Translations under genes and position numbers: made by a program
Assembly (NCBI GenBank): GCA_039934415.1
Contig: JBDTME010000006.1
Location: 17,206 to 81,205, forward strand
DNA: 64,000 bases
Direction of reading: 5' to 3'
DNA from: Patescibacteria group bacterium
Lineage (GTDB): Bacteria; Patescibacteriota; Microgenomatia; UBA1400; PJMF01
The notes under the pieces: model-generated
What the model was told of the DNA's origin: nothing
Database searches by the model: none
Seen by the model: the letters and a program-made list of their open reading frames with translations, nothing else
In this document: positions 4,771 through 63,886 of the stretch, piece after piece
How the letters are laid out: every line of letters begins with the position of its first letter
Numbering within the stretch: position 1 is the first letter of the stretch

Positions 4771-4815
4771 GAGTGGTAGAATACAGCCTATAATTTTTTA
4801 CTATACTAACTGCCC

Positions 4816-5088: not shown

Positions 5089-5091
5089 AGT

Positions 5092-9792: not shown

Positions 9793-9916
9793 GTTGGCCT
9801 ATTGGCCTTTTCCCAGACTATCTGATATAATTCGATCATCTTTTATAAAGTACTTTGCCAAGAGGGTTTAATACTCTCTGGCTAAGGGGCCTCCACTAAA
9901 GGTGGAGTGAACATAT

Positions 9917-10186
9917 ATGGCACTCGATACAACGGTTAAACAAACAATCATCAAACAGTTTGCTCAAGGTGATGGCGACACAGGTTCTCCAGAAGTGCAA
10001 GTCGCGCTTTTAACCCACTCGATCAACGACCTCACTGATCATCTCAAAAAACACAAAAAAGACAATCACTCCCGCAAAGGTCTCTTAAAACAGGTAGCTA
10101 AACGCCGCAGATTACTTAATTTCTTAAAGCGCAAAGATGACAAACGCTTTGAAAAATTGATTGCAGAGCTTAAGATTAAAGGGTAA
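9917..10186 (+). CDS. rpsO: 30S ribosomal protein S15
   Basis: 89 aa; family match on [44 protein letters not shown]. Confidence 0.95.
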
Positions 10187-10490
10187 TAATTACTTATCTA
10201 TAAGAGTGCTATACCACTACTTTTGATAAAGATCCCAACCAACCTGGAACAACGTTAGAATACACCAACTTAAAAGGTGATAAGGTTGATTACTACTTGA
10301 GTAAATATTCTCTAACAGTTCACGGATCTGCTTTTACAGATTGCATGAGTAACAATAAATATATTTAAAAGAAAGGAATGGGGTTATTAAAAATGTTAGT
10401 TTTTCAGGTGTTAGTTTTGAGTCATGAGGCGGAATATTGTTCTAATGATTGAAAACTGATAACTGATAGCTAACTTCCCCAAAAATTTTT

Positions 10491-12899
10491 ATGGCGAAAA
10501 AACAACGCCCAAGTTTAACAAACCTCTACACCAAAGAGGTAAAAGTTGGTGAAAAGGTAATTACCCTCGAAGTGGGTCGCTTTAGCGAACAGGTCGAGGC
10601 TGCTGTCATGGCCAAATGTGGTGACACATGGGTGCACGTGACCTTAGCACTCGGTAAAGAAACTGCTTTGGGTTATTTCCCATTGCAAGTTGAGTATGTC
10701 GAAAAACTCTATGCTGCTGGAATGATTAAGGGATCTCGCTGGGTAAAGCGTGACGGTCGTCCAACTGAGGATGCAGTCCTTCGTGGTCGTGTCATCGATC
10801 GTACCCTTCGACCATTATTTGCTGAAGGTTTAACACGAGAAGTTCAAGTTATCTGTACCGTTTTATCCGCTGATGGAATCAACGATCCAGATATGGTTGC
10901 ACTTGTCGGAGCAGCCGCAGCAGTTGAAATTTCTTCTATCCCATTTGATGGTCCAGTCGCAGGTTTGCGTATTGGCTACAACATTGCCGAAAAGAAATTC
11001 GTTTACAATCCAACTTTCACTGAAAAAGAAACCAGTGATATGGATTTGATTTTATGTGGAAATGCAGATGCCATCGTGATGGTTGAAGCAGGTGCCAAAG
11101 AAATTTCAGAAGAAGTCATGATCGAGGCTTTTGATAAAGGTCAGGCTCAACTGTCAGAAATGGCAAAATCCATTAAAGAGATGGGTGAGGAAATTGGTAA
11201 AGAAAAATTCACCTTTATCCCAGAAGAAGAGCACGTAGAACTGCAAGCAGCGTTGAACAAGAAGTACGCCAAAAAAATTGCAGAGATGGTTGTGTTAGAA
11301 GGCAAACTTTTACCATTTGACCTCGATGTACTCGTCGCTGAAGTGAAAGTTGAGCGCGAAGATCTCGAAGAAAACGATATCAAGCACGCCTTTTACAACT
11401 TAATGAGAACCGAAGGTCGTCGCATGATCATTGAAGACGGGATCCGTCCAGATGACCGCAAGACAACTGAGATTCGTCCAATCACCGTTGCTGTTGACGT
11501 TCTTCCAATGACCCATGGTAGTGCTATGTTCAAACGAGGAGCAACTCAAGCACTCACGATCACTACTTTAGGTTCTCCATCTCTTGGTCAATTGATCGAA
11601 GACATGGAAGGTGAGCAAGTTCGTCACTATATTCATCACTACAACATGCCTCCATATGCTTCTGGTGAAGCTGGACGCATTGGCTATCCAAAACGCCGAG
11701 AAATCGGACACGGTGCTCTTGCAGAACGTGCATTGTTCCCAATGCTGCCAACTCAGGAAGAGTTTCCATATACCATTCAGGTTGTTTCTGAAATCATGAG
11801 TTCCAATGGCTCGACTTCCCAAGCTTCTGTTTGTGGATCGACAATGTCACTCATGGCTGCCGGTGTCCCAATCAAACGACCAGTTGCAGGTATTGCAATG
11901 GGTCTGATGACTGATGGTAAAGGCAAGTACGTTGTCTTGTCTGACATCCAAGGTTTGGAAGATCACGTTGGAGACATGGACTTCAAAGTTGCTGGAACCA
12001 CGGTTGGTATCACTGCCATGCAGATGGATATCAAGATCAAAGGGATCCCAATGGACGTGATGAAAAAAGCACTTGGTCAGGCCCGAGAAGGTCGACTCTT
12101 CATCTTGGATAAGATGTTGGCTTGTATCGCTGAACCACGTAAAACTGTTTCAACCTTGGCGCCTAAAGTTCAACAATTGTCCATCCCGGGTGACCGAATT
12201 GGAGAATTGATTGGTCCAGGAGGAAAGGTCATTAAAAATATCATTGCTGTTACCGGTGCTCAAGTTGACGTCGATGAAGCAGATGGTAAAGGAATTGTAA
12301 ATATTTCTTCCGATGACCAAGCCAAAATCGATCAAGCGTTTAAGTGGATTTCGGACATGATGCGTGTGTTGACCGTTGGTGAAGAGTTCGATGGATTAGT
12401 GACTCGGGTCGAAGGATACGGAGCTTTTGTCGAGTTCCTTCCAGGACGTGAAGGATTAGTCCACGTTTCAACGATGGCAACTGAGTTCGTTCGAGATGCC
12501 CATGATATGGTCAACCTCGGGGACAATGTTCACGTTAGAATTGCCGGTATCGATGAAGAAGGCAAGATCAAACTATCGATGTTAACTCCAGAACAAGAAG
12601 AGCAGGCTCGTCAAAACCGACCTCCTCGTCCAGAAGGTGGAGATCGAGGTGGATTTAGCGGTGGCAGTCGCGGAGGTTTCAGTGGAGGCGATCGAGGTGG
12701 AAGTAGAGGCGGATTTGGTGGAAACCGAGGTGGCAGTGGCCGCAGTTTTGGTGGCGGTGATCGCGGAGGCAGCCGAGGCGGCTTCAGCGGTGGTGACCGA
12801 GGTGGCAGTCGTGGAGGTAGTACCGGCCGCAGTTTCACTCCCCGAAATGATCGTGCACCAGCATCAAAAGATAGCTTTTCACAAAAATCATTTGAGTGA
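10491..12899 (+). CDS. pnp: Polynucleotide phosphorylase (PNPase) with a C-terminal Gly/Arg-rich (RGG) tail
   Basis: Two RNase PH domains, KH and S1, then about 95 aa of GGDRGG/SRGGFSGG repeats. A roughly 300-nt 5' leader precedes it. Confidence 0.95.
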   Translation: MAKKQRPSLTNLYTKEVKVGEKVITLEVGRFSEQVEAAVMAKCGDTWVHVTLALGKETALGYFPLQVEYVEKLYAAGMIKGSRWVKRDGRPTEDAVLRGRVIDRTLRPLFAEGLTREVQVICTVLSADGINDPDMVALVGAAAAVEISSIPFDGPVAGLRIGYNIAEKKFVYNPTFTEKETSDMDLILCGNADAIVMVEAGAKEISEEVMIEAFDKGQAQLSEMAKSIKEMGEEIGKEKFTFIPEEEHVELQAALNKKYAKKIAEMVVLEGKLLPFDLDVLVAEVKVEREDLEENDIKHAFYNLMRTEGRRMIIEDGIRPDDRKTTEIRPITVAVDVLPMTHGSAMFKRGATQALTITTLGSPSLGQLIEDMEGEQVRHYIHHYNMPPYASGEAGRIGYPKRREIGHGALAERALFPMLPTQEEFPYTIQVVSEIMSSNGSTSQASVCGSTMSLMAAGVPIKRPVAGIAMGLMTDGKGKYVVLSDIQGLEDHVGDMDFKVAGTTVGITAMQMDIKIKGIPMDVMKKALGQAREGRLFILDKMLACIAEPRKTVSTLAPKVQQLSIPGDRIGELIGPGGKVIKNIIAVTGAQVDVDEADGKGIVNISSDDQAKIDQAFKWISDMMRVLTVGEEFDGLVTRVEGYGAFVEFLPGREGLVHVSTMATEFVRDAHDMVNLGDNVHVRIAGIDEEGKIKLSMLTPEQEEQARQNRPPRPEGGDRGGFSGGSRGGFSGGDRGGSRGGFGGNRGGSGRSFGGGDRGGSRGGFSGGDRGGSRGGSTGRSFTPRNDRAPASKDSFSQKSFE

Positions 12900-29603: not shown

Positions 29604-30266
29604 ATGCATATTTATCCCGCTATTTTAACCGAATCTGTACCATTGGCTGAAGAACAGCTCGCCAGGGTGGTGGGTATTCCAGAGATTGAAGCAGTTCAAA
29701 TTGATATCATTGACGGTGAGTACGCTGATAATCTAACAATATCCCCAATTGACCTGATTGGTACAAACTTTGGTGAGCTGAGAGTAGATTTTCATTTAAT
29801 GACTATAGAGCCTGTGAATTTCATCTATGAGTGCAAACAAGTCGAAAATGTTCGAGCTGTTATCGCACAGATCGAACGCATGACTTCGCAAAAAGAGTTC
29901 ATTCGAGAAGCGCTTCAGTTCAGTGTTCAGCCTGGTTTATCACTGGATTTATACACCCCTGTTGAGTCTATCCACGAAGAAAGTTGGGAAGAGTTGCGAG
30001 TGATCTGTTTAATGGGGAATTTGGCTGGTCATCAAGGTGAGCCATTTAAAGGCAAAGTAGTGCTCGATAAGATTAGAGAAGTGAATGAGATCAAAAAGAA
30101 GTTAGATCTACAGCAATTGGAAGTTATTGTTGATATTGGTGTTAATGAAGACACGATTAGTCAGATTGCGAAAGCGGGAGCTGACGGAGTTGCTGTTGGT
30201 AGTCTATTATGGAAGAGCGAAGATATTGAAGCACAGCTACAACGACTCGAAGAAAACGCACATTAA
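29604..30266 (+). CDS. Ribulose-phosphate 3-epimerase-like TIM-barrel protein (metal ligands partly substituted)
   Basis: Collinear with Rpe: DIIDGEYADNLTISP vs DVMDNHYVPNLTFGP; FHLM; LMGNLAGHQGEPF; AGADGVAVGS. The first His of the HxD ligand pair is Gln, so the function is uncertain. Confidence 0.55.
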   Translation: MHIYPAILTESVPLAEEQLARVVGIPEIEAVQIDIIDGEYADNLTISPIDLIGTNFGELRVDFHLMTIEPVNFIYECKQVENVRAVIAQIERMTSQKEFIREALQFSVQPGLSLDLYTPVESIHEESWEELRVICLMGNLAGHQGEPFKGKVVLDKIREVNEIKKKLDLQQLEVIVDIGVNEDTISQIAKAGADGVAVGSLLWKSEDIEAQLQRLEENAH

Positions 30267-30310
30267 TTTCAAGATTAAAAACTATCAACCACTGAGCAAG
30301 TATATTTTTC

Positions 30311-30937
30311 ATGCGTACACAACTTCACATTCCATCACCAAAAACAAATCCAGGCATCCGTAATGTTGCGGTGTTTGGTTCGGCTGATGTGGATTCAAAA
30401 GATCCAGTCTATGAAGAAGCATTCAACGTTGCTCGTTACTTGGCGTATCATGATAAAGTGATTGTGAATGGTGGGGGTCCAGGTGTGATGCAGGCTGCAA
30501 CAACAGGTGCGCAGTCAGTTGGTGGCCAGACACTCGTTGTGACTTTTGCTCCCGATCCTAAAGAAGCACCAGATTTTGAAGGAAAATTTGAGAATAATAA
30601 AGCTGATGTTGAAATCAAAACCAAAAACTACGTTGAAAGAATGTTTAGTTTAATGGAACACGCCGACATTTTTATCGTGTTTAAAGGTGGTACAGGAACG
30701 CTCAGTGAGTGGGCTACGGCTTGGTTGATGGCGCATATTTACTATGGACATCATAAACCACTGATTTTATACGGTGAATTTTGGACTGAAGTTATTAAAT
30801 GTATGACCAACAATTTTTTTATTGGTAAACATGAGATGGAAGTGTTCAAAATAGTCAAAGACGAAGCTGAATTGATCCCGGCCTTTGAGTACTTCGAGCA
30901 TGAATTAGAGAAGCGGATGTCAGCTACTTGGAAGTAA
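30311..30937 (+). CDS. LOG-family nucleotide 5'-monophosphate phosphoribohydrolase (TIGR00730)
   Basis: VAVFGSA ... GGGPGVMQA ... KGGTGTLSEW motifs of the LOG/YvdD family. Confidence 0.8.
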   Translation: MRTQLHIPSPKTNPGIRNVAVFGSADVDSKDPVYEEAFNVARYLAYHDKVIVNGGGPGVMQAATTGAQSVGGQTLVVTFAPDPKEAPDFEGKFENNKADVEIKTKNYVERMFSLMEHADIFIVFKGGTGTLSEWATAWLMAHIYYGHHKPLILYGEFWTEVIKCMTNNFFIGKHEMEVFKIVKDEAELIPAFEYFEHELEKRMSATWK

Positions 30938-30981
30938 GCCCCTCGCTTGTTTGTCCCCCCAAAGACATCTAGAATGAACAT

Positions 30982-31905
30982 ATGTACGATTTACTTTCCA
31001 TTGGTTCTGCTACGTTGGATGTTGTTGCAAAGTCGAAAGATTTTGTGATTAAAGAAGAAGGGGGCAATAAAATTTTGTGTGAAAGTTATGGCGAAAAGAT
31101 GGATGTAGAGGAAATCAAATTTATTAGTGGTGGCGGTGCCACGAATGTGGCAGTGGGATGTAGTCGTTTGGGCCTGAAATCAGCAGTCGTTTGTGAAGTG
31201 GGTAAAGATTTGGCTGCCCAGGTCATTTTTGATGATTTAAAAAAAGATAAAGTTGAAACGCAATATATTATCAAAGAAAGATTGGAAGAAACGGCAGTAT
31301 CTATTCTATTGTCGGCAGGTGATGGTGGGCGCAGTGCCTTAACCCATCGAGGAGCTGCCTATCAACTGGAAAGTCGCGACATCCCTTGGAATGAGCTGGA
31401 TAAGACGAGGTGGCTTCACTTCGGAACGCTAGGGGGTGATAAGCAGTTACTGTTTGATCTGTTTGATTTTGCTCGGCAGCACCAACTAAATGTGTCCTGG
31501 ACACCTTCTTTAAAAGATCTCGAGCGGTGTGAGTGTGGCGACTTATTACCGTCTGTTATTTATTGTCATGTCCTCATTTTAAATTTAACGGAATGGACAA
31601 CGATCAAAAAGATTCAGGAAGATTTGTTGAAGCATATAGAGTTGATCATTGTAACGGAGGGCAAAGATGGTGGTGTTGTGTATCAAAACGGCAAGAAATT
31701 ACTTACGTATGAATCGCTAGAAGTTAAAACTGTTGAAGAGACTGGAGCTGGCGACGCCTTTGCTACAGGATTTATTGCTGGTCAGCTCAACAGTAAGACT
31801 GTTATAGAAGCAGTCGAGTGGGGTAGCCGAAACGCTGCTTCAGTTGTGCAATTTCTCGGAGCCAAAGAAGGTTTACTTACCAAGTCTCAAATTCAGGGCA
31901 AGTGA
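30982..31905 (+). CDS. PfkB-family sugar/nucleoside kinase (ribokinase-like)
   Basis: GGGATNVAVG N-terminal motif and C-terminal anion hole ETGAGDAFATGF. Confidence 0.8.
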   Translation: MYDLLSIGSATLDVVAKSKDFVIKEEGGNKILCESYGEKMDVEEIKFISGGGATNVAVGCSRLGLKSAVVCEVGKDLAAQVIFDDLKKDKVETQYIIKERLEETAVSILLSAGDGGRSALTHRGAAYQLESRDIPWNELDKTRWLHFGTLGGDKQLLFDLFDFARQHQLNVSWTPSLKDLERCECGDLLPSVIYCHVLILNLTEWTTIKKIQEDLLKHIELIIVTEGKDGGVVYQNGKKLLTYESLEVKTVEETGAGDAFATGFIAGQLNSKTVIEAVEWGSRNAASVVQFLGAKEGLLTKSQIQGK

Positions 31906-52710: not shown

Positions 52711-53654
52711 AAGTTACCGTGGTGATACCACTTTTAAATGAAGTACTCAGTCTTGATGCTTTACTACATGCATTGATGAAGCAGACTCTTTCTCCAACTG
52801 AAGTGATTTTAGTTGATGGTGGGTCAAAAGATGGATCGATAGAAAAAATCCAAGAATGGCAACAAAAAAAATTATCGTTCAATTTGGTGCTTCTTGAGAA
52901 ACTGGGTGCGAATCGATCGGTCGCTCGCAATTTTGGAATCAAGGAAGCAAGAACCGAAGTGATTGCTCTGACCGATGCGGGATGCAAACCAAAAGCCGAC
53001 TGGCTGGAAAAGTTGACGACACCATTTATTGACGAAGAACGGACTGAAGTTGTGGCAGGTTTCTATGACCCAGCTCCGCAAAACTGGTGGGAGGATGTGC
53101 TTGCTGATTATACGTGTACTCGTGACTGGAATTTCCAACCTAATACTTTTCTACCATCGTCTCGTTCATTAGCTATCACTAAGACAATTTGGCATAAAGT
53201 CGGCGGATACCCAGAGCATCTCAATACGTGTGAGGATCTCATTTTTGCGGAAAAATTAAAAAACAAGTCAAAACACTGGCAAGTGGTTAAAGAGGCCCAA
53301 GTGATCTGGAACCAACCTCACAATTTATCTGAACTCAGTCAAAAAATTTTCGGATACGCCACAGGGGATTTACAGGCCAAGTATGAACGACACGTCAACA
53401 AGATTTATTCAGCGATGTGGAGAATTATTGTTCTGATTTGTGTGGCAGTTCCAGCAGCGTTTATTGGTCAGCCGATAATTCGAGTATTTGGGTTATCCTT
53501 TTTTGCCCTCTATATCGTAGGTAGCCTGGGCAAACATCCTAGAATGCTCAAGTATCCCTTGGCGATTTTCGCCATCCCAGTCATTCAGCTCACCGTTGAT
53601 GCCTCGCTCGTTCAAGCTCTGATCTATCACAAGCTATCCTCTCAATATAAGTAG
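52707..53654 (+). CDS. Glycosyltransferase family 2 with C-terminal TM helices
   Basis: VVIPLLNE ... VILVDGGSKDGS ... DAG(C) DxD-like motifs of GT2. Confidence 0.8.
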   Translation: MKVTVVIPLLNEVLSLDALLHALMKQTLSPTEVILVDGGSKDGSIEKIQEWQQKKLSFNLVLLEKLGANRSVARNFGIKEARTEVIALTDAGCKPKADWLEKLTTPFIDEERTEVVAGFYDPAPQNWWEDVLADYTCTRDWNFQPNTFLPSSRSLAITKTIWHKVGGYPEHLNTCEDLIFAEKLKNKSKHWQVVKEAQVIWNQPHNLSELSQKIFGYATGDLQAKYERHVNKIYSAMWRIIVLICVAVPAAFIGQPIIRVFGLSFFALYIVGSLGKHPRMLKYPLAIFAIPVIQLTVDASLVQALIYHKLSSQYK

Positions 53655-55360
53655 CTTTTTTTCTGGTAAAATAGGTCACAATCTGGAGAGGTCGCATAGT
53701 GGCCTAGTGCATCGGTCTTGAAAACCGACATCCGAAAGGATCGAGGGTTCGAATCCCTCCCTCTCCGCCATCGTGTACGAATGGCTAAAAGAGCTTCCGA
53801 TTGTTCGGGTGAATAGGGCTTTTCTGTGAGTTCTAACGAAAGGTATTTCTGTTCTAGAGCAGGATAGGCTTTTTTGATCTCTGCGAAGTGTTCTGTGAGC
53901 TCTATATAGAGCTTTCCTGCCTTGATTTTAGGACCATATCCCAATGCCATAAGGATTTCTTTCTTCAGTTCTAACCCTCCATGAAGGAATGCTTCGTGAG
54001 CGTAGGTGGCGAAGTGAAAAGTTCTCTCTGTAAGCTCGAGCCACTCAACGGCTCGCTGCTCAGTTCTTCTGAGTTTCTCCTTTAGTTCGGTAATTTTGGT
54101 TTGAAGTTCGTTCCTTTGTTTCACAAACATGTCATCGTCAATGAGTTCTCTAAACCTCATCTTGGTTAAGTTGTCGAGCTCTGTTTGTGTAGTGACTAAC
54201 GTTTTATGTTGCATGTCATAAATTTTGCTGCGGTCTTCAATTTCTCGGTCGTTGTTTTCATTGAGGACTTCTAGTGCCCAATCTTTAAACTCGGGGAGGA
54301 TGGTAATAGCATCCAGTTCTGTTTCGATTTGCTCTTCGAGTTTTTCGAGTGGGACCACTTTCCTTTGAGTACATTTTATGGTCGTTTTCTTCCTGGTACA
54401 GTGATAATAGGTGTACTCTTTAATCTCACCAGTTTTCTTAATGAATTTTTTCTTCGTTTCGGCGGTATATAGACAGCCACATTCTCCACACCGAACAAAA
54501 CCAGTAAAGGCAAACTCATGCTTCTTGGGGCGTGGTTTACCTTTTCTTCCCATCAATACTTGCACTCGGTCAAACTCTTCCAAGGTGATCATGGGATCAT
54601 GTTTGCCTTCATAGTGTGTGCCTTTATGATTAAGAATGCCTGCATAGAAGACACTATTGAAAATCTTGTAGATCCCGCTTCGAGAAAGCGGTTTTCCTCC
54701 TAAGCGTTTCGTTTTTCTGGTGAGGTAACCCCATTCTTCATTGGCGACTTTCAAAATTTGTGGTGGAGTATACGCTCCAGTCAGCATTAAGTCCCACATC
54801 TTACTAATCAGGTTAAATCGATCTGTATCTTTGGCAATGGTGTTTTCAGTTCTGTCATTGAGATATCCAGCTGGAGCCATGTTGGGGAGCCAGCCTTTTT
54901 GTAACTTTGTCTCTATACCACGTTTCACATTCTTGCTTAGGTCCAGAATGTATTGATTGGAACTAGCGGCTTCAACACTGAAGATAATAACGTTATCACC
55001 TGGTAAATATTCACGATCATAGGTTTGAATTGACTTGAGCACACTTTGTTGGAGTAACCAACTGACACGACCACTGTCAATCGGGTTCCTGGAAAGGCGG
55101 TTAATTTGCCAACAAAGAAGCCCATCAGCCTCACCATTCTCTAATTTATCCATAACCTCTTCAAAGATTGGGCGATTCCCAGGTTTTTTGGCGGATTTTG
55201 CCTCGGTAAAGATTTTTACGATGTGAAGATTATTTTCTTTGGCTAACTGGTTGAGCTTGTTAATTTGGCTCTCAATGGACTGAACTTGCCTGTCTTCGCT
55301 GTCGGAAGACTTGCGTGCGTAGAGAAAGTAGCGGATGTGTTGTCTGTCTTTTGTGATCAT
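53642..55360 (-). CDS. Large serine recombinase (resolvase/invertase catalytic domain + recombinase domain + zinc ribbon)
   Basis: N-terminal YARKSSDSEDRQVQSIESQ catalytic Ser context, a central recombinase domain, a CGECGC...C Zn-ribbon and a coiled coil. The last ~40 codons of the ORF are antisense to tRNA-Ser, so the true C-terminus is uncertain. Confidence 0.85.
   Translation of the reverse strand: MITKDRQHIRYFLYARKSSDSEDRQVQSIESQINKLNQLAKENNLHIVKIFTEAKSAKKPGNRPIFEEVMDKLENGEADGLLCWQINRLSRNPIDSGRVSWLLQQSVLKSIQTYDREYLPGDNVIIFSVEAASSNQYILDLSKNVKRGIETKLQKGWLPNMAPAGYLNDRTENTIAKDTDRFNLISKMWDLMLTGAYTPPQILKVANEEWGYLTRKTKRLGGKPLSRSGIYKIFNSVFYAGILNHKGTHYEGKHDPMITLEEFDRVQVLMGRKGKPRPKKHEFAFTGFVRCGECGCLYTAETKKKFIKKTGEIKEYTYYHCTRKKTTIKCTQRKVVPLEKLEEQIETELDAITILPEFKDWALEVLNENNDREIEDRSKIYDMQHKTLVTTQTELDNLTKMRFRELIDDDMFVKQRNELQTKITELKEKLRRTEQRAVEWLELTERTFHFATYAHEAFLHGGLELKKEILMALGYGPKIKAGKLYIELTEHFAEIKKAYPALEQKYLSLELTEKPYSPEQSEALLAIRTRWRRGRDSNPRSFRMSVFKTDALGHYATSPDCDLFYQKKSYLY
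53685..53770 (+). tRNA. tRNA-Ser (anticodon TGA)
   Basis: Cloverleaf folded manually: acceptor GGAGAGG/CCTCTCC, 3-bp D-stem, anticodon stem TCGGT/ACCGA with loop CTTGAAA, long variable arm, T-arm GAGGG-TTCGAAT-CCCTC, discriminator G and CCA. Confidence 0.9.
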
Positions 55361-56397: not shown

Positions 56398-57154
56398 ACT
56401 TTTTACCTCCTTTACTCAATGTATTGGCCACATTCATCAGATCCCAACCGTTCTCATTCCAGAACTTATCTTTGTCCATTGCATTCAAACAATGATTAAT
56501 TTGTTCATCGCTGAAACCAGCTTTATAAAGTTTATGCAAAGCACTTATTTGTTTAGGAAAATTCACAAACTTTTTACCAAACTCAGCTTCGACTGAGTGA
56601 ATATTTTCAATGCACTTTTGATGACCTTGAAGGTTTGGACAAATTGTTTTCCGAGAAACTTTAGGTTTTTCGCTAGGACCACTTTCAAGTAGGCTGGTAA
56701 TATTTTCTTCTTTCCCTTGTTCTTCTTTAGTGTCCCTCAGCTGGGACGATGTTTGTCCCCGATTTGAAACGATCTCTTTGTTTTCTGAAGATTGTCCCCC
56801 GTTTGGGACGATCTTTTTGTGACGGTAAAATTCGGCATTCTGCTCCCATAAATCAACAATGGCATACGTCGTTCGAGGTTTGGTTTTGGCGGGAATTGTC
56901 CCTGAAGTTTTAATCCAACCACGATTAATCAAGGACTCTAAAAGACGGTAGACAGTGTTTTTACTGATACCACATTTCTTTCCCAGCTCTCTAGCCGAAT
57001 AGTAAACTCTGCCACGTTCACCAGCGATGCGTTTTAGCGTTAGATAAAAACCTCTTTCTTCTAGAGTTGAATGATTCACAATGTAATTAGGGACAATGGA
57101 GAAGTAGGCTCTATCGCTTGACTCATCTTTGATATTAAATTCTGTTTGTTTCAT
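56387..57154 (-). CDS. Winged-helix/HTH DNA-binding protein, putative replication initiator or organizer, with internal iteron-like repeats
   Basis: N-terminal wHTH (ARELGKKCGISKNTVYRLLESLINRGWI) resembles phage/plasmid Rep or DnaD-like initiators. The central coding region holds three copies of GTCCC-N5/6-GGGAC/GAAAC. Confidence 0.45.
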   Translation of the reverse strand: MKQTEFNIKDESSDRAYFSIVPNYIVNHSTLEERGFYLTLKRIAGERGRVYYSARELGKKCGISKNTVYRLLESLINRGWIKTSGTIPAKTKPRTTYAIVDLWEQNAEFYRHKKIVPNGGQSSENKEIVSNRGQTSSQLRDTKEEQGKEENITSLLESGPSEKPKVSRKTICPNLQGHQKCIENIHSVEAEFGKKFVNFPKQISALHKLYKAGFSDEQINHCLNAMDKDKFWNENGWDLMNVANTLSKGGKKYGI

Positions 57155-57345
57155 AACAACTCGAGTTGTTTCTTCCGCTCCATGACTTGTTGGTACTGAA
57201 CTTTCGTCATTGGTTTGTAAATAATCTGCATGAGTCGAACTAGGGAGAGTCCTTTTTCATACGCGTCTTCATAACTAATCTCTTTGCCGAATCGAGCTTT
57301 ATAGAGCATTTGGTATTTTTCAACTTGAGCCTCTGTAATAAACAT
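57151..57345 (-). CDS. Hypothetical small protein (64 aa)
   Basis: ORF whose stop overlaps the start of the downstream gene. Confidence 0.3.
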   Translation of the reverse strand: MFITEAQVEKYQMLYKARFGKEISYEDAYEKGLSLVRLMQIIYKPMTKVQYQQVMERKKQLELL

Positions 57346-57644: not shown

Positions 57645-57953
57645 AACATACCGACAGATCTAGAAAGTTTGTGGTTGTTTAGGTTTATTTGTGAAGGAGA
57701 GTACCAGCTATTGTTTGGTTTGAGTTGTTTTTGTTACACTCCGATTAATGAAAAGATCATTTTCTGATAAAGAGAAACTCAATAATGTTGTCTAAAAAAT
57801 TAATCGATGAGTACAAACAAATTATTAAGGAAGATTATGGACTTGAGTTGTCAGACGAGGATGCACATGACTGTGCTACCAATCTCGTCGATTACTTCGA
57901 GTTACTAATGAAAATCGATCACCAAACGAAAGTGAAGAAAGAAGAGTAAAGGT

Positions 57954-58181
57954 CTAAAAAGGGAGCAGCTCGCAAGAATCTACTTTTAATGCCTTGGAGA
58001 TTTTGTAAAGTGTTCTGACCGTGGGGTTTCGCTCACCTCGTTCAATAAGTCCAATGTAGGTTCGATCCATCGAAACCATGACAGCAAGTGCTTCTTGTGT
58101 GACACCTTTACTCTTCCTAGTTTGTTGAAGCTTTTGGCCGAATTTCTCTAGTATGTGTTTGTGAGTGATAGGTTTTCCCAT
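57954..58181 (-). CDS. XRE-family helix-turn-helix transcriptional regulator (Cro/CI-type)
   Basis: HTH_XRE signature QEALAVMVSMDRTYIGLIERGERNPTVRTLYKISKAL. Confidence 0.85.
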   Translation of the reverse strand: MGKPITHKHILEKFGQKLQQTRKSKGVTQEALAVMVSMDRTYIGLIERGERNPTVRTLYKISKALKVDSCELLPF

Positions 58182-58330: not shown

Positions 58331-59227
58331 ATGACAAGAAAAACGTTAAAAAAACTACCGTTGTTGGTACTTTTTCTAGCAATGAGTCTTTTAGCTGGTG
58401 GGTTTGTGCTGAGATCTAAAGCACAAACACAAGTAATACAGATCTGGGATCAGAATTTAGAACAAATAAAAGCCCTGACAGAAGCTTCTAACAACGATCC
58501 GAAATACCGTGAACACAATTCACAAGCCAGCAAGGATTTATCAGATGAGCTCTGTTCATTCACTACGCGTCCTGCTGAAGAGCGAGAAAAAGCAGTGGGT
58601 GCTATTCGTGATTTCTTGGAAATGCCAACAGCTGAAATAAAGTATGAATGTAACGATGCCTTTTATGACTTAGAAAGTGATCGCTTTATTCAAGCAAAGA
58701 GTGAGACTTATTCCCTAGACAAGACTTACTTCATTGTGAATTTTGTAACAAACCATATCATTCAAGTTGAAGAGACTCCTGGAACCTGGGGATATAAAAC
58801 AGATGGGACTAGGTGGTTTAGTGAACAAAAAACCTATGACTATTCAAGGAACCTCTCTCAGAAAGACGCTGAACAACTTGCGAGAAACTTTATTGCTAGA
58901 CGCCAAATGGCTTTGGGGAGCATCGATCTGAGTAAACTAAAGCTAGAGACTGGCAAAAAAGATGTTGGTAATGGCCAAATAAATTATTTCTTCATTTGGA
59001 AGGGAGAGTCTAAAACAGTTCATCTCGACCCTCCTGCTGAAACTTGTAGTCAAGATTTGGATAAGAAGGCAGAAGGTTTGTACCTTAATGGCAATGGAGT
59101 ACCCTGTATAAAGCGGTACGAGTCTACAGAAACGCCAACGCTGAGCATTGCCTTCACCAACAGTGGTCAGCTGATTAACTTCTCCAATGAACTAGAGGGA
59201 CAAATTGGTAGGGCAAGGATGAGATGA
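58331..59227 (+). CDS. Secreted or membrane-anchored hypothetical protein (298 aa)
   Basis: Signal-peptide-like N-terminus MTRKTLKKLPLLVLFLAMSLLAGG. No motif. Divergent from the XRE gene. Confidence 0.35.
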   Translation: MTRKTLKKLPLLVLFLAMSLLAGGFVLRSKAQTQVIQIWDQNLEQIKALTEASNNDPKYREHNSQASKDLSDELCSFTTRPAEEREKAVGAIRDFLEMPTAEIKYECNDAFYDLESDRFIQAKSETYSLDKTYFIVNFVTNHIIQVEETPGTWGYKTDGTRWFSEQKTYDYSRNLSQKDAEQLARNFIARRQMALGSIDLSKLKLETGKKDVGNGQINYFFIWKGESKTVHLDPPAETCSQDLDKKAEGLYLNGNGVPCIKRYESTETPTLSIAFTNSGQLINFSNELEGQIGRARMR

Positions 59228-59528
59228 CGCTGTTTACCAACACTTTAATCAAAATGTGGGTGAGCTTTTTAGAAGCACAGCTCCAAATTATTAAACAGCT
59301 AATCAAGAAGTGAATGAATTTAGTCACAATTTTCGTACACATTTTGCCCACCCTAAAATTGAGGCCTAATTATTTCGTCAAAAATGTTACAGAAGAAATA
59401 CATCAGAAGCATACATTCTCGGCTTTTTAATCTCATAAATTGGTGATATATTATCCAGATAAAATCGAACAATTCTCCAGAGTAGCTGCGATAGAAGAAT
59501 TTACTCACAGAAATCTGATAAGGAAAAT

Positions 59529-60191
59529 ATGTCCAACATAGAACATTTGGAAGAAAGTATTGAAGCTCATCTAGAACAAGTAAGACAGGCTCTTGCCGAA
59601 TTTAGAGATAAATTTGCCGTTAGTTTTATCGTTAGCATTTCTGGCGGAGCTGAAGAGCATAATACAACTTATGCACATGATGTGATTTCTCAATTGATTG
59701 TTGGTCTGAAAAACTCTTCTTGCGCTATATTGACTGGTGGTACACAAGGAGGGATCCCCGAACTAGGAACCAGGATTGCCAGAGAACATAAGCTATCTAC
59801 AATTGCAGTTTTTCCTCCTAAAGCCAAAAAATATGTGCTCTTTAATGAGCTTGATTTGCCGATTGAGACACTCCCTCCTTCAGTTGGACCAGCTGGCTTT
59901 GGTTCTGAAACGCCTTCGTTTGCTCAATTACCTGATTATGCTGTGTTTATTGGTGGGTCGTATGGAACTTTGGCTGAGGTGAGCACAATGATGAAAGTAA
60001 ACACTAAACGTAAAAAGGATAATGTTGAGCCGATCTATATTGTTCCAATTGCTGGCTCTGAAGGAGTAGCTGCTTTAATCCCTTTGCTCGTACAACTAAA
60101 CCCCAGTCTTGCCTTCTGTTTGCCTGAGTTTGAATTAACAACCGGAGCAGCTGCGGCTGAATTTATTAAGGAGACTCAGAGTAAAAGATAA
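59529..60191 (+). CDS. LOG/SLOG-family Rossmann-fold protein (second, divergent LOG paralog)
   Basis: ILTGGTQGGIPELG and AVFIGGSYGTLAEV motifs parallel the GGGPGVM / KGGTGTLSE motifs of the LOG protein at 30311. Confidence 0.55.
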   Translation: MSNIEHLEESIEAHLEQVRQALAEFRDKFAVSFIVSISGGAEEHNTTYAHDVISQLIVGLKNSSCAILTGGTQGGIPELGTRIAREHKLSTIAVFPPKAKKYVLFNELDLPIETLPPSVGPAGFGSETPSFAQLPDYAVFIGGSYGTLAEVSTMMKVNTKRKKDNVEPIYIVPIAGSEGVAALIPLLVQLNPSLAFCLPEFELTTGAAAAEFIKETQSKR

Positions 60192-60222
60192 ACTGTCTTT
60201 TGCTTATCAGTAGAAATGTACT

Positions 60223-61173
60223 ATGCCGCTTGTTGAAACCCCAAAAAGTTTGCTCTTGGACAAAGGACCGCTTACAAAATTACAAACAAATAAAACTGAT
60301 CTCTCGAATGCTGAAACAGAATACACAAATATTTGCACTGGCTTTGGTGTAGATCATGAGATTCCGGTCAGGATTGCAGTATATGCGCTTCCGGTACTTC
60401 AAATGGGAGAAAAATTTCTGCGAGCTCAAACTGAGTTTTATGTCGCGGAGGCTTTTGCCACAAAACTCAATGGTCTTGATCCCAATAAGGTGCAAGTTAA
60501 TATTGCCTTGATTAAAGAATACATTAAGCTTTTTAAAACGGAGTTATCTGTTGTAAATTCTCCAGTTTGGCTAGATGAGCGCGACCCCTTTGAAGTTCAG
60601 CGACATGCTCTGACAAAAGAATTGGCTAAAATATTAAGAGAGCATGGTTCAGAAAGAATAATTCGTTTTGCTGACAGTCGGAATGGCGATGAATCTCTGG
60701 CATATATAGCATCGCATGCCCTTTATATGTGGGACACTCTTAATGTTGACGAAGATAAATTCATCACTGAGAGAAATGTCTCTCCGCAATCATTATTGAT
60801 GGTTGGAGGACCAGCAGAAAAACTTTTTTTTGAAGCTCGGCAGTTGCTATTGAGTCACTTTCCTACAGTTTCAACTCGCTCTACAGTCCAAGGTTTTACC
60901 GAAATCGGTCGTCGTCCACCATATTATGCTGTTGATAGTGAAATGGTTGTTAATGGCAAGAATAATTTAAGAATTGGCTTTGAAGAAATCATGTCTATTT
61001 CTGATCCTGATGCACTTAGAGATTCGCTTTACCTGATTATCAGTTTGTCAGAAACCTTAACATTTGACGATATTCCTAGGGTGAAAAAGGGTCAAATCAA
61101 ACCTCAAGAGCTTGAAGATCTGACATCAGCTTGCAATAAGCTACAGAAGATTATTGCCCAACTAAGAAGCTGA
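60223..61173 (+). CDS. Hypothetical protein (316 aa), island cargo
   Basis: ORF with AGGAG-like context. Weak HIGH-like stretch (TGFGVDHEIP) but no KMSKS, so no confident family. Confidence 0.3.
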   Translation: MPLVETPKSLLLDKGPLTKLQTNKTDLSNAETEYTNICTGFGVDHEIPVRIAVYALPVLQMGEKFLRAQTEFYVAEAFATKLNGLDPNKVQVNIALIKEYIKLFKTELSVVNSPVWLDERDPFEVQRHALTKELAKILREHGSERIIRFADSRNGDESLAYIASHALYMWDTLNVDEDKFITERNVSPQSLLMVGGPAEKLFFEARQLLLSHFPTVSTRSTVQGFTEIGRRPPYYAVDSEMVVNGKNNLRIGFEEIMSISDPDALRDSLYLIISLSETLTFDDIPRVKKGQIKPQELEDLTSACNKLQKIIAQLRS

Positions 61174-61174
61174 A

Positions 61175-61468
61175 ATGAATGCACGAGTTGTCTGATCTGG
61201 AGTGACCTCACCGGTTATCTTTCAACAGCTGTGCCGTATGGGCAGGATGGCTATTGAATAAGGCTATTGATTTTAGTACAATACTGGTTGTTTACAGTTG
61301 ATATAAAGCATTTGACTGGAGTCACGATCCAGAAGCTGCGAGTCAAAATACTCGACGGAAATTGAGCCGTAAAATACAATAGCCGATGTCGCGTATGCGG
61401 AGCCGGCCTGAGAGCTCAAGAATTAATATTCTTGAGAATAAGGATGGGACCGCGGGAGGTCCTTTTTT
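61175..61468 (+). ncRNA. Candidate T-box-like leader or structured RNA ending in an intrinsic terminator
   Basis: AAGGATGGGACCGCGGGAGGTCCTTTTTT contains a near-consensus T-box sequence (AGGGUGGNACCGCG, here AGGAUGGGACCGCG). A terminator hairpin GGACC-N6-GGTCC-T6 overlaps it. Upstream are internally repetitive G(C/U)CG(C/U)GUAUG(G/C)G(C/G)AG blocks. Stem I and the specifier loop are not resolved. Confidence 0.4.
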
Positions 61469-61554
61469 AATACCTCTCGTTCCTTAGTTATCACTCATTT
61501 GAGTGGTAGTTAATGAACGTGAGGTTTTTTGTTGCAAAAAAAGGAAAAATCTAT

Positions 61555-62337
61555 ATGAATAAAAAAATTGTTTATCAGCAACTTGAAGAAAAGTTTGTTA
61601 AATACAGAGACTTAATCAATATAGCTGTCAAAGAAAATAATGATGGTTTTGTAAGCCTGCGCCAAACAGAACCAAAGACTTATGAGGTTATAGGCAGATA
61701 TGAAACTTTAAGTGACATGAAAGAGAATTTTCCTTTAGTTCCGGTACGACAAGAAGTAAAAGATAAGCTTGATCAAGCAGATAAAGCTTTGAAAGAAATG
61801 AATCCCAATTTACAGCTAGTTGTTGCTTATGGTTATAGAAGTTTGGAAGTCCAACAAAATTATTTTGATATTCAAAAACAAAACTATTTAAAGAACCAAC
61901 CAGAAGATAATGATGAAGAAATTGACGAAATTATTCACCGTTTGATTGCAGTACCAAACGTAGCTGGTCACCCAACAGGAGGGGCAGTAGACGTTTTTAT
62001 TGAAGATACTAGAGATGGTACTAAACTTGATTTTGGAGTTCCAATTTTTACTTTCGACTCTAAAGATGCTTATTCGTTTTCTCCATATATTGGTAAGGAA
62101 GCTCAACAAAATAGATTTTTATTGAGAAAGATAATGACAGGACAAGGGTTTGCCCCCTACGATGGTGAGTGGTGGCACTTTTCTTTTGGTGATAAAGAAT
62201 GGGCTTTTTATTACAAAAAACCGTATGCAGTCTATGAGCAAAAAAGAGAAGAAGTTGTTTTCAAGTTTGCAGAGAATCAAATTCGGGTAAACAAAGAATA
62301 TACCCAGATTGGAGTGCAACAACTGTCTTTCCAATAA
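61555..62337 (+). CDS. D-alanyl-D-alanine dipeptidase (VanX/DdpX, peptidase M15D)
   Basis: YGYRSLEVQ, HPTGGAVDV (HxxGxAxD) and EWWHF motifs. An alternative start at 61513 adds 14 aa. Confidence 0.8.
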   Translation: MNKKIVYQQLEEKFVKYRDLINIAVKENNDGFVSLRQTEPKTYEVIGRYETLSDMKENFPLVPVRQEVKDKLDQADKALKEMNPNLQLVVAYGYRSLEVQQNYFDIQKQNYLKNQPEDNDEEIDEIIHRLIAVPNVAGHPTGGAVDVFIEDTRDGTKLDFGVPIFTFDSKDAYSFSPYIGKEAQQNRFLLRKIMTGQGFAPYDGEWWHFSFGDKEWAFYYKKPYAVYEQKREEVVFKFAENQIRVNKEYTQIGVQQLSFQ

Positions 62338-62399: not shown

Positions 62400-62435
62400 A
62401 GCACCTGCCCATTGCGAGCGAGGTGCTATTTTTTT
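62400..62435 (+). terminator. Rho-independent terminator after the VanX-like gene
   Basis: AGCACCT-N14-AGGTGCT hairpin followed by T8. Confidence 0.65.
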
Positions 62436-62462
62436 AACAAAAGTTTACAATTAAGAGGAAAT

Positions 62463-63311
62463 ATGTCATCGAGAGCAAAAGAAGCTGACAATCCAAGAAG
62501 AAAGGAATCTGAACCAATGCCACTGCAATACTCAGTTTTCCGACCAGGAGGCAATGACACCGCCTTAGTTGTTGGTGTGGAGCGTGATTCTGATAAGCGC
62601 AAGAAAATTAATGACCAAGTGATGAAACAACATTCAAATGTTGAACAAGTTGGTTTTGTGAACCTTGATAGAGATAATCCAGAACTGATGATGGCTGGAG
62701 GTGAATTTTGTGGTAATGCAACTCGTAGCACAGCGTGGCAGATTTTAACTGGAAAACCAGGAGAAGTATTAATGAAAGTCTCTGGAGTAGAGTCAAAGTT
62801 ACGAGCAGGGGTTGATGAAGAAGGAAATGCTTGGGCACAAATGCCTATTTATGCTGATCCTTCCAGAATTACATTTTTGGAAGACGGTAGAGCTGTGGTG
62901 GCTATGGAAGGCATCACTCATGTTGTCATGAACGATATTTATCCAGACGCTTCTCCTGAAGAACTCAAACCAATTGCTCTTAAATTATTGCAACAGCTAG
63001 GTTTAGATAAATCAGTGGCCGCATCAGGCGTTATGTTCTTAACTCCAACTGAGTCAGGTGTGAGCATGAGGCCCGTTGTGCTGGTCAGAGACATAAACAC
63101 ACTTTTTTATGAGACTGCTTGCGGTAGTGGTACGACTGCTGTTGGGCTTCTTGAAGCCCTCAAAAAGGGTGGTTCTATTGAATTGCCCGTCACTCAGCCA
63201 ACCGGTATGCCAATTAATATTAAGGTTTCTTTTGATGGGTCGAAGTTTGAGCAAGCTGTAATTTCTGGTCCAATAGAAGTACTCAATAATAACGAGGAGA
63301 TAACTGTATGA
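62463..63311 (+). CDS. DapF-fold PLP-independent epimerase/racemase-like protein (DapF/PhzF/proline racemase superfamily)
   Basis: FRPGGNDTALV (cf. GNDF), GEFCGNATRS (cf. MCGNGxRC) and ETACGSGTTAV (cf. ACGSGA) place two Cys-containing loops as in DapF. Confidence 0.55.
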   Translation: MSSRAKEADNPRRKESEPMPLQYSVFRPGGNDTALVVGVERDSDKRKKINDQVMKQHSNVEQVGFVNLDRDNPELMMAGGEFCGNATRSTAWQILTGKPGEVLMKVSGVESKLRAGVDEEGNAWAQMPIYADPSRITFLEDGRAVVAMEGITHVVMNDIYPDASPEELKPIALKLLQQLGLDKSVAASGVMFLTPTESGVSMRPVVLVRDINTLFYETACGSGTTAVGLLEALKKGGSIELPVTQPTGMPINIKVSFDGSKFEQAVISGPIEVLNNNEEITV

Positions 63312-63886
63312 CAGATGAAAGAACAGGCAATCATAGTATCGACCGAGTCATGACGGCAGAAGAGCTCAACGAAGCGTTTAATAAAGGACTTATTGAGTTA
63401 TATCAGGCTGTGTTTGCAGATCCTCCTTATGAAGAGAAGTTCACACCAGAGGAAGTAAAAGATGTTTTGCAACTCTACTTTATGCAAGGCGTACTTATGT
63501 TATGTAGAGAAGATGCACAAAGCGTGATTGGTTTTTCAGCATCTGTGCCTTTAGTTTTAGAACAAGAAATTGCTACAATCGCTCAAAATTTTGACATTGA
63601 TCCAGAAACAGTGTGGTACTTTGCTGACTTAGGAGTGAGTAAAGAGCATCGTCGTAAAAAGATTGCTCAAAGCTTAGTTGTGGCTTTACTTGGTGAGACT
63701 CCAGTTGATACATTGCTCATGCGCACTTCAGAAAATAATATTGCTTCTCAAAGAGTTAACCAAAGTGTCGGCTTTGAAATAATTGATGGTATGGAGCAGC
63801 ATGTTCAACAGACCAGACAAAATGGTGAAGTAGAGTCGGATAGAAGAATCTTTCTGAAAAAACAAAAATCAGTCGTGCAAAGTTAA
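63308..63886 (+). CDS. GNAT-family N-acetyltransferase
   Basis: Motif A region LGVSKEHRRKKIAQSLV and an overall GNAT fold. Overlaps the upstream gene by 4 nt. Confidence 0.7.
   Translation: MTDERTGNHSIDRVMTAEELNEAFNKGLIELYQAVFADPPYEEKFTPEEVKDVLQLYFMQGVLMLCREDAQSVIGFSASVPLVLEQEIATIAQNFDIDPETVWYFADLGVSKEHRRKKIAQSLVVALLGETPVDTLLMRTSENNIASQRVNQSVGFEIIDGMEQHVQQTRQNGEVESDRRIFLKKQKSVVQS

Follow-up and report, generated by a model that had tools for sequence, protein, structure and literature searches.

A probable histidine-linked chromosomal cluster, opened by a SLOG protein and a synthetase-like companion of a racemase, beside an integrated island in a Patescibacteria genome

The stretch of DNA considered here, referred to as the window, comprises 64,000 nucleotides (nt) of the genome of a Patescibacteria group bacterium (contig JBDTME010000006.1). 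Towards its right end, three open reading frames (ORFs) lie on the plus strand at 58331-59227, 59529-60191 and 60223-61173 and encode a protein of 298 amino acids (aa), a divergent SLOG/LOG-fold protein of 220 aa and a protein of 316 aa. The first-pass annotation, made from the sequence alone, had placed all three correctly and had read them together as cargo of a mobile island; it also had the 316-aa gene directly following the SLOG gene, as is the case, with 31 nt between the two. The three genes belong in fact to two unrelated units. The 298-aa gene is the last gene of an integrated island, whereas the SLOG and 316-aa genes open, as we hold with good confidence, a chromosomal metabolic cluster linked to histidine and are neither island nor defence cargo. 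The order of this cluster is SLOG gene, 316-aa gene, T-box leader, M15 peptidase gene, racemase gene and GNAT acetyltransferase gene, and it runs past the end of the window.

The 220-aa protein (59529-60191, plus strand) carries the motifs LTGGTQGG and GGSYGTLAEV. It matches the Pfam family PF18306 'SLOG cluster4' (LDcluster4) with E=6.6e-6 and 26.2 bits, the gathering cut-off being 26.3, and a match to the same family is precomputed for 22 of the 24 clusters of its homologues, which make up a small Patescibacteria family. No match to PF03641 was obtained at E<=0.1. The protein is identical to the deposited ABI425_05390 and has a 68% homologue in a Microgenomates genome. Its AlphaFold model has a predicted local distance difference test (pLDDT) of 91.4, and the best Foldseek matches (E 1e-8 to 4e-6, probability 1.0) are YgdH/PpnN, TM1055, plant and bacterial LOG, the molybdenum cofactor (Moco) carrier protein, the SLOG domains of TRPM, and DprA. 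The earlier proposal of a Rossmann-like SLOG fold thus holds, given a confident model and these nearest solved structures.

The same annotation had regarded this protein as distinct from the housekeeping LOG encoded at 30311-30937, and this is borne out: only the latter matches PF03641 (Lysine_decarbox, 53.7 bits), besides PF18306 at 67.9 bits, and the comparison of its profile with that of the SLOG family is weak (E=0.0044). The housekeeping LOG gene lies between those of a ribulose-phosphate 3-epimerase and a PfkB sugar kinase (window 29604-31905), a context that fits ribose-5-phosphate recovery from nucleotides.

With the LOG/PpnN(YgdH)/TIGR00725 branch (PF03641, PF18306), the 220-aa protein shares the Rossmannoid SLOG fold, a glycine-rich loop and a stand-alone length of about 200 aa, and its GGSYGTLAE matches the PGGxGTxxE motif of LOG. 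Across 24 sequences of the family, G70, G71, T72, G75, E127, K156, N158, R161 and the GGxxGTxxE motif (G142-G143-S-Y-G146-T147-L-A-E150), including its glutamate E150, are invariant; judged from this alignment, they look like an active-site pattern. Unlike the LOG branch, the protein is without PF03641 and 0.1 bit under the PF18306 cut-off; it has an additional N-terminal helix (residues 3-29) and the family-specific invariants K156, N158 and R161. The arginine of the LOG 'ERK' motif appears to be Thr128: an hhalign alignment with the housekeeping LOG, whose probability is only 7.9%, sets 'SETP' opposite 'VERM'. Its gene context also differs from that of LOG, since it is made of histidine genes and not of cytokinin or nucleotide salvage genes.

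This context was read in nine groups of loci (the window and the related loci L001, L004, L006, L010, L012, L022, L023 and L024). The racemase cluster starts with the SLOG gene in the window, L004 and L006. In L010 the order is SLOG, 316-aa gene and racemase, and in L001 a gene for a lyase like histidine ammonia-lyase (HAL) lies inside the operon, between the SLOG and 316-aa genes, beside genes for histidyl-tRNA synthetase (HisRS) and a short HisG. In L022 and L023 a short HisG gene directly adjoins the SLOG gene; L023 adds HisRS, the same GNAT protein, a phosphoribosyltransferase (PRTase)-like protein and a PfkB kinase. In L012 and L024 the SLOG gene stands between hisI and a second SLOG gene, followed by hisE and a hisG of the long form, with HisRS and, in L012, hisD. 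Taken together, hisG is next to or near the SLOG gene in L001, L012, L022, L023 and L024, with hisI and hisE in L012/L024, and in L001 and L004-8 the HisRS gene is close by or closes the cluster. In L023, the genes of the PRTase-like protein (316 aa, weak PF00156) and of the PfkB kinase (4388-6065, minus strand) are co-oriented with those of HisRS and the GNAT protein, near the SLOG-HisG pair; these neighbours hint at a ribose and phosphoribosyl pyrophosphate (PRPP) theme around the SLOG family.

The product of the 316-aa gene (60223-61173, plus strand) has no match in Pfam, PADLOC, NCBIfam or PHROGs, and none in the PDB by sequence. The AlphaFold model (pLDDT 84, predicted TM-score (pTM) 0.83) follows the strand and helix order of a minimal tyrosyl-tRNA synthetase (TyrRS) over its whole length, including a C-terminal helical domain (253-315). 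All of the top 50 Foldseek matches in the PDB are TyrRS or tryptophanyl-tRNA synthetases (TrpRS), with E from 6e-6 to 3e-4 and probability 1.0, over alignments of about 310-375 columns and with TM-scores of 0.42-0.59. The protein is thus predicted to have the fold of a class-Ic aminoacyl-tRNA synthetase (aaRS). It had previously been called an unknown partner; this remains true as far as annotation goes, while the fold is TyrRS/TrpRS-like and the gene that it accompanies is the racemase. An exhaustive profile search gathered 125 representative clusters of the family (about 50% identity), all annotated in their sources as 'hypothetical protein'. No Pfam domain was found in ten sampled distant members, and the N-terminal extensions of the long members (380-530 aa) match no protein of the cluster.

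The class Ic synthetases (TyrRS/TrpRS, tRNA-synt_1b), and especially the minimal archaeal TyrRS, have the same fold order, C-terminal helical domain included, whereas sequence or profile similarity is undetectable: neither hhalign against a tRNA-synt_1b protein nor a profile search of the PDB returned anything. Furthermore, both signatures of the class are lost. In place of HIGH, the region after strand 1 reads C-T-G-F-G-V-D-x-x-x-P-V-R, and the family pattern at this site is G-[FY]-G-x(4-7)-P-x-R-x3-Y-x2-P, with R50 and Y54 invariant and no conserved histidine. In place of KMSKS, the loop after strand 5 reads I-G-R-R-P-P-Y-Y (I-G-R-x-P-x-Y family-wide), with G229 invariant and P232 and Y234 near-invariant. 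At the presumed class-Ic GxDQ position the protein reads GGPAEK. The residues invariant across the family are R50, Y54, Y73, F149, H165, G195, E199, G229 and D267, and R153, R206 and D171 are near-invariant. Unlike the class Ic synthetases, the 316-aa protein is encoded beside a racemase, and the genomes concerned have ordinary aaRS genes as well. That it might be a class-I replacement of HisRS was considered and rejected: a normal class-II HisRS gene is adjacent and the ATP motifs are degenerate.

A non-translational role would not be without precedent among proteins derived from aaRS, such as the cyclodipeptide synthases (CDPS), which lack HIGH and KMSKS as well, HisZ, MshC and GluQRS. CDPS have a catalytic serine after strand 1 (G-x-S), HisZ belongs to class II, and the ATP motifs are still present in MshC and GluQRS. 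The 316-aa protein differs from CDPS in having no catalytic serine motif and in keeping the C-terminal domain that CDPS lack. A serine or cysteine nucleophile after strand 1 is not conserved across the family, C38 being kept only in the nine closest sequences.

The 316-aa gene was examined in 17 contexts (the window, L001-3, L004/5, L009, L010/11, L013-L021, L075, L076 and the P0155 contig), 16 of which have a readable flank, that of L013 being cut by the contig end. A racemase gene is adjacent or in the same cluster in 16 of these 16. In 13 it is a DapF-fold racemase like HisR and CntK, immediately adjacent (and, in L009, fused to an M15 peptidase); in two, the window and L004/5, the same racemase lies one or two genes off; and in the P0155 contig a non-homologous Asp_Glu_race (PF01177) racemase takes the same position. 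The contexts span Microgenomates-like bacteria, Saccharibacteria, Peribacteria, Gracilibacteria, Magasanikbacteria, Nomurabacteria and other Parcubacteria; L014 and L018 are saccharibacterial. The SLOG gene, for its part, is present in 4 of the 17 contexts and absent in 13. The SLOG and 316-aa genes do occur together outside this genome (adjacent in L004/5 and L010/11, with one gene between them in L001-3), but the tight coupling that the first-pass annotation proposed is not supported, for five of the nine SLOG contexts (L006-8, L012, L022, L023 and L024) also lack the 316-aa gene. These neighbour counts indicate that the conserved functional partner of the 316-aa gene is the racemase and not the SLOG protein.

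Other neighbours recur as well. The HisRS gene is immediately upstream of the 316-aa gene, in one operon with the racemase, in L019 and L021, and a TrpR-family regulator gene is directly upstream in eight contexts (L009, L013, L014, L017, L020, L075, L076 and the P0155 contig). The order in the P0155 contig is TrpR-like regulator, Asp_Glu_race (PF01177) racemase and aaRS-like protein. L075 has two TrpR-family paralogues (5577-5909 and 10656-11941), one before the aaRS-like/racemase pair and the other beside a tRNA-synt_1b (TrpRS/TyrRS-type) gene; the ligand of the one that precedes the pair could be relevant to the amino acid that the pair handles. DUF6624 proteins are encoded within about 4 kb of the pair in L015 (8151-8672) and L019 (2532-3074), that is in Peribacteria and Parcubacteria, and L019 also has a RimK/MvdD-type ATP-grasp ligase gene close by.

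In the window, the racemase gene is annotated at 62412-63311 (plus strand), although the ATG at 62463 or that at 62514 is probably where translation begins. The only NCBIfam models matched are the two of histidine racemases, HisR of Fusobacterium (6.5e-25) and CntK (1.7e-23), both scores being well below the cut-offs, and the best PDB sequence matches by phmmer are HisR of F. nucleatum (9CR1/9CR6, 8.8e-16) and CntK of Staphylococcus aureus (6L4L/6JIS). In HisR, the catalytic residues are C67 and C209, and N18, E65, G68, N69, E206 and S211 contact the substrate (PMC11602996). All of these catalytic and histidine-binding residues are kept in the window racemase, in the motifs GGNDTA, GGEFCGNATR and YETACGSGTTA, and the HisR motifs are conserved in 17 Patescibacteria copies, including GGEFCGNA and YE(T/N)(A/S)C(G/A)SGTTA. 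The window racemase thus has in common with HisR and CntK both catalytic cysteines and the proposed histidine-binding residues, and on these motifs it is probably a cofactor-independent histidine racemase. Its setting is different: cntL and cntM (staphylopine) are absent here, and an aaRS-like partner has not been described for HisR or CntK (PMC11602996).

The gene that precedes it (61513-62337, plus strand) encodes a D-Ala-D-Ala-dipeptidase-family peptidase of the M15 (VanX/DdpX-like) type, with Pfam matches to Peptidase_M15 (E=2e-18) and VanY (1e-7) and NCBIfam matches well under the equivalog cut-offs. In L009, a single protein of 482 aa (8942-10390) combines an N-terminal HisR-like racemase with a C-terminal M15 dipeptidase, and this fusion argues that racemase and M15 peptidase act in sequence. 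The last gene in the window (63308-63886, plus strand) encodes a GNAT acetyltransferase-like protein (Pfam Acetyltransf_1, E=1.7e-4) whose position is syntenic with L004 and L006. After the GNAT gene, the L004 operon continues with two M20 peptidases and then HisRS, that of L006 with a HAD hydrolase, a nucleoside hydrolase and then HisRS. In both of these loci (L004 9626-10237; L006 8669-9262), a multi-pass membrane protein of about 200 aa, without Pfam match, is encoded between the SLOG/aaRS-like genes and the T-box; in the window, the 340-nt gap at 61174-61512 holds no remnant of the relatives' 203-aa gene and has the T-box instead.

The T-box leader (61302-61487, plus strand; Rfam RF00230, 42 bits, E=5e-7) has a short Stem I and precedes the M15, racemase and GNAT genes. 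A consensus scan places a sigma-70-like promoter candidate, TTGAAT-17-TACAAT, before it at 61254-61282. The elements of a T-box are present, namely AAUAAGGA-UGGGACC-GCG, GAGAG-Stem III-AA and a terminator with U6: the bulge UGGGACC (61445-61451) is of the 7-nt UGGNACC type, and the terminator is a competing hairpin GGGACC..GGUCC with a U6 tail (61446-61468). Orthologous leaders lie 5' of the M15 gene in L004, L006, L010 and L022, and folding of five leaders by RNAalifold gave 49 pairs, 9 of them with compensatory changes. Stem I is a 5-bp hairpin whose 7-nt terminal loop, GUCACGA (61321-61327), contains the candidate specifier CAC (His) at 61323-61325; this CAC is invariant in the leader alignment. 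It is also in register with the CGC of another leader of L004 (6315-6518, minus strand), a T-box before argH-argG with a CGC (Arg) loop and a UGGU bulge, which served as a control of the register; a tRNA-Arg(GCG) with A73 in a related contig matches both CGC and UGGU of this argH leader. C73 is the discriminator of bacterial tRNA-His and would pair with the G of the UGGG bulge. Such pairing of the fourth base of the bulge with the tRNA discriminator is a known feature of T-boxes (PMC7583486). Owing to the CAC specifier and the UGGG bulge, the M15-racemase-GNAT operon is most likely turned on by uncharged tRNA-His.

The T-box sequence, the UGGNACC bulge, the RRRxG-Stem III-AA element and the terminator are those of the hisS and his T-boxes of Firmicutes and of the short-Stem-I T-boxes of Actinobacteria (PMC7583486). 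By comparison with these, the leader of the window has a Stem I reduced to a 5-bp hairpin with the codon in its terminal loop, and it controls a peptidase-racemase-GNAT operon in Patescibacteria. No T-box was found before the aaRS-like/racemase pair or the SLOG gene in L001, L009, L012, L014, L015, L017, L019 and L023. Another regulatory RNA of the window, far from the cluster, is a flavin mononucleotide (FMN) riboswitch (RF00050, 1428-1546, plus strand), whose 86.6 bits are over the gathering score.

The island next to the cluster begins at tRNA-Ser(UGA) (53685-53770, plus strand; ARAGORN and Rfam tRNA), its left junction: the homology of the window to the island of L070 starts exactly at 53685. 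From there, the island comprises an antisense large serine recombinase (53642-55360, minus strand; Pfam Resolvase, Recombinase and Zn_ribbon_recom), which is outside the SLOG cluster, a helix-turn-helix (HTH) gene, a DUF5659 gene, an XRE-type HTH regulator (57954-58181, minus strand; HTH_3, E=2.8e-15) and, divergent from the latter, the 298-aa gene. The recombinase gene is 74% identical in DNA to those of L028 and L070, which bear the same island modules. Its ORF runs antisense through the entire tRNA-Ser(UGA) gene (53642-53770), as it does in L070, so that the C-terminal ~40 residues of the recombinase are encoded by tRNA sequence; this overlap suggests a position of attP/attL within the 3' end of the recombinase gene. 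L028 has an additional tRNA-Ser-like fragment 2.5 kb away.

The 298-aa protein (58331-59227, plus strand) has an N-terminal hydrophobic signal or anchor. It has no match in Pfam, NCBIfam or PHROG and a single sub-threshold one in PADLOC (MTase_III, E=0.0064, 13.4 bits). A metagenome scan found relatives in 50 loci, 54-85% identical over the best-matching segment. The XRE gene adjoins the homologue in at least eight of these loci, and many of the 50 also bear homologues of XRE, DUF5659, the recombinase and two small island ORFs of 54 aa (57785-57949) and 64 aa (57151-57345). None of the 50 holds the SLOG, 316-aa, M15, racemase or GNAT genes, and the genes downstream of the 298-aa homologues differ between loci, forming several unrelated groups. 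One 64%-identical homologue, in L051 (7191-8819), lies 14 nt 3' of hisI-hisE, without an XRE gene, in surroundings that resemble a full his operon (HisRS, HisD ... HisI, HisE); its position may indicate that this same neighbourhood of the chromosome is a hot spot for insertions.

The right end of the island falls within 59228-59528, an interval that takes in the island end and the start of the chromosomal cluster. By blastn, homology of the window to island-bearing contigs stops at 59201-59227, and homology to the SLOG-cluster relatives L004/L006 starts at 59528/59550. A search of the island right end for direct repeats and tRNA-Ser fragments found no att repeat, no long repeat and no fragment. 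Since att sites were not recognised, the boundary rests on synteny and on the homology breakpoints; for serine recombinases a recognisable att repeat is not expected. The SLOG-led cluster also occurs in other settings: in L001 it adjoins rpoB-rpoC, without an island; in L004 a transposase gene and a small HTH gene precede it; and in L006-8 it follows another serine-recombinase island, one with a Shedu-like SduA_C gene. (Inside that other island, just upstream of the SduA_C gene, L006 has a LOOT RNA at 6537-6655, minus strand; RF03000, 82.6 bits.) In every context examined, the SLOG and 316-aa genes are chromosomal. The homology breakpoints and the presence of the cluster in other settings thus make the 298-aa gene island cargo and the SLOG and 316-aa genes chromosomal flank, and the 298-aa protein is functionally unrelated to the SLOG cluster. 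The assignment to the rightward arm of the island therefore stands for the 298-aa gene and fails for the other two, given the breakpoints at 59227 and 59528 and the absence of both genes from all 50 loci.

The explanation as a whole, that of an island beside a histidine-centred cluster with the mechanism set out here, is in our view moderately probable. Uncharged tRNA-His would stabilise the antiterminator, so that the M15 peptidase, the racemase and the GNAT protein are made and, in relatives, the M20 peptidases and HisRS as well. These peptidases would release (D-)histidine from peptides, the racemase would interconvert D- and L-histidine, and HisRS would charge tRNA-His, so that this T-box arm most plausibly raises the supply of L-histidine. 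The aaRS-like protein may keep the amino-acid/adenosine pocket of class Ic, its substrate being the substrate or product of the racemase (D- or L-histidine), which it would most likely activate and ligate to some acceptor. The SLOG protein may bind or hydrolyse a phosphoribosyl nucleotide tied to the chemistry of HisG (PRPP, phosphoribosyl-ATP (PR-ATP), AMP or 5-aminoimidazole-4-carboxamide ribonucleotide (AICAR)). These specific roles of the aaRS-like and SLOG proteins are, each of them, tentative. Still more doubtful is a bolder version, in which the 316-aa family is an undescribed class-Ic branch that activates or ligates D-histidine and is obligate with the racemase, while the SLOG protein is a phosphoribosyl-nucleotide hydrolase or regulator linked to HisG; the D-histidine of that branch would go to a cell-envelope component, a metallophore or another product.

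The rival explanations differ in which of the two proteins they take as their starting point. SLOG domains are found in Thoeris ThsA and in other conflict systems (PMC7272460), which speaks for the suggestion of the first-pass annotation that a SLOG sensor or enzyme borne by the mobile element, with an effector, forms a nucleotide-centric conflict or anti-phage module. The genes are indeed immediate neighbours of an island and, in L006-8, of the Shedu-like SduA_C gene, and the NCBIfam model of Thoeris III ThcA is matched (E=0.023, 14 bits against a cut-off of 110), yet this match is local and covers only the GGxxGTxxE motif. The island homology, moreover, ends short of the SLOG gene, and the order of the cluster is conserved whether or not an island is present; neither the SLOG nor the 316-aa protein has a match in PADLOC, PHROGs or the plasmid and phage searches; and the fold of the partner is aaRS-like and not that of a known effector. 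In contrast to the defence-type SLOG proteins (Thoeris ThsA/ThcA), there is no model match and no effector neighbour (SIR2, TIR, transmembrane or nuclease), the conserved neighbours being his genes, peptidases, a racemase and a tRNA-His T-box. We thus consider a defence role very improbable. A less remote, if minor, prospect is that the SLOG protein is no hydrolase and instead binds nucleotides as a regulatory partner of the short-form HisG, in the place of HisZ, or acts as a carrier in the manner of the Moco carrier protein. It would suit the short HisG (231-256 aa) that directly adjoins SLOG in L022 and L023 and is near it in L001, two of the best structural matches, namely the Moco carrier protein and TM1055, and the putative LOG catalytic arginine that is not conserved. 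It agrees less well with the window, L004 and L006, where there is no hisG in the neighbourhood, with the long-form HisG of L012/L024, which needs no HisZ, and with the retention of E150 of GGxxGTxxE and the invariant E127, K156, N158 and R161.

For the 316-aa protein, three other roles have to be weighed. By analogy with VanT-VanC-VanXY and with the D-aspartate ligase-racemase operon Asl(fm)/Rac(fm) of Enterococcus faecium, the cluster might serve the cell wall: the racemase would supply a D-amino acid (D-histidine, or one of the D-Asp/Glu type with Asp_Glu_race), the aaRS-like protein would ligate it to a peptidoglycan precursor or a D,D-dipeptide, and the M15 peptidase would trim or recycle the product. 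The logic of racemase, ligase-like enzyme and M15 D,D-peptidase is the same, the racemase::M15 fusion included, although as an analogy only: all three proteins are of other families, the racemase here is of the DapF fold and not dependent on pyridoxal phosphate (PLP), the ligase-like protein is aaRS-like and not ATP-grasp, and the cluster is without a link to glycopeptide resistance. The non-homologous racemase that displaces HisR at the same position, the pair of L075 that adjoins murG-ftsW-mraY-mur ligase, and the wide occurrence of the pair in peptidoglycan-bearing Patescibacteria also favour such a role. It is nevertheless unlikely, as the tRNA-His T-box and the co-transcription with HisRS are better explained by histidine supply, M15 is absent from most partner loci beyond the Microgenomates-like group, no acceptor-binding domain is evident, and we know of no report of D-histidine in peptidoglycan. 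Equally small is the chance that the 316-aa protein is a non-catalytic amino-acid-binding regulator or scaffold, which would, for instance, control the racemase or report histidine status. The degenerate HIGH and KMSKS, the lack of a conserved nucleophile after strand 1 and the strict pairing with one enzyme partner would be expected of a pseudo-synthetase, and HisZ, the HisRS paralogue that serves HisG, is an established precedent (PMC3896937). The invariant R50, Y54, Y73, H165, E199 and D267, however, together with R153, R206 and D171, cluster on elements of the catalytic domain in an active-site-like manner, and the persistence of the 316-aa gene despite the racemase swap fits a shared small-molecule substrate better than a protein-protein complex. 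Finally, the protein might act as CDPS do, which are themselves aaRS-like proteins of class Ic: the adjacent HisRS would make His-tRNA-His, from which the 316-aa protein would pass the histidine on to a peptide or some other acceptor. This would agree with the class-Ic fold deprived of HIGH and KMSKS, with the HisRS gene immediately upstream in the L019 and L021 operons and with a C-terminal helical domain that resembles the one for anticodon binding in minimal TyrRS. Such a role is quite improbable, because no serine or cysteine is conserved at the CDPS catalytic position (C38 is kept only within the nearest subfamily), the 50 best structural neighbours are genuine TyrRS/TrpRS and not CDPS, and a racemase partner argues for a free and not a tRNA-bound amino acid.

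Several observations count against the histidine-centred cluster that we prefer. The functions proposed for the SLOG and 316-aa families derive from gene context, and a TrpR-family regulator precedes the 316-aa-racemase pair in many lineages. All six T-box leaders score 40-51 bits, below the RF00230 gathering score of 93. No tRNA-His gene, from which C73 could be read, was present in the sequences searched, and as a specifier in a terminal loop is unusual, ACG (Thr) would stay formally possible without the argH control. The SLOG and aaRS-like genes, being upstream of the T-box, are not necessarily regulated by histidine. With its LOG catalytic arginine seemingly replaced by threonine in the low-confidence alignment, the SLOG protein may be no hydrolase. 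The likeness of the modelled 316-aa protein to aaRS lies at the level of the fold only (TM-scores of 0.42-0.59). Its Y161-x3-H165-x2-Y168 presumably corresponds to the amino-acid helix Y151-x3-Q155-x2-D158 of the Methanocaldococcus jannaschii TyrRS, and its GGPAEK to the class Ic GxDQ / GGMEQRK site; both mappings serve as leads only. To our knowledge, D-histidine is not established as an abundant nutrient, which weakens a reading in terms of pure salvage.

The SLOG fold and aaRS-like paralogues are already known kinds of protein. In the literature, no paper on the function of PF18306 or LDcluster4 was found, and we could not find an earlier description of a SLOG family linked to hisG and hisS, of an unannotated class-Ic-derived family without HIGH and KMSKS that, throughout the Patescibacteria, is tied to a racemase, or of a short-Stem-I tRNA-His T-box over a peptidase-racemase operon.

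Patescibacteria, which account for a large share of bacterial diversity, get by with a minimal metabolism, and for most of their conserved genes of unknown function there is as yet no explanation. The present analysis removes a false lead, that of defence island cargo, and gives the SLOG family a concrete substrate hypothesis, linked to hisG and PRPP. Apart from staphylopine synthesis, the physiological role of the cofactor-independent histidine racemases is still to be settled (PMC11602996). The pairing of an aaRS-like protein with such a racemase, often together with HisRS or a TrpR-type regulator, suggests that these bacteria either use D-histidine in a way not yet described or handle histidine by a new route.

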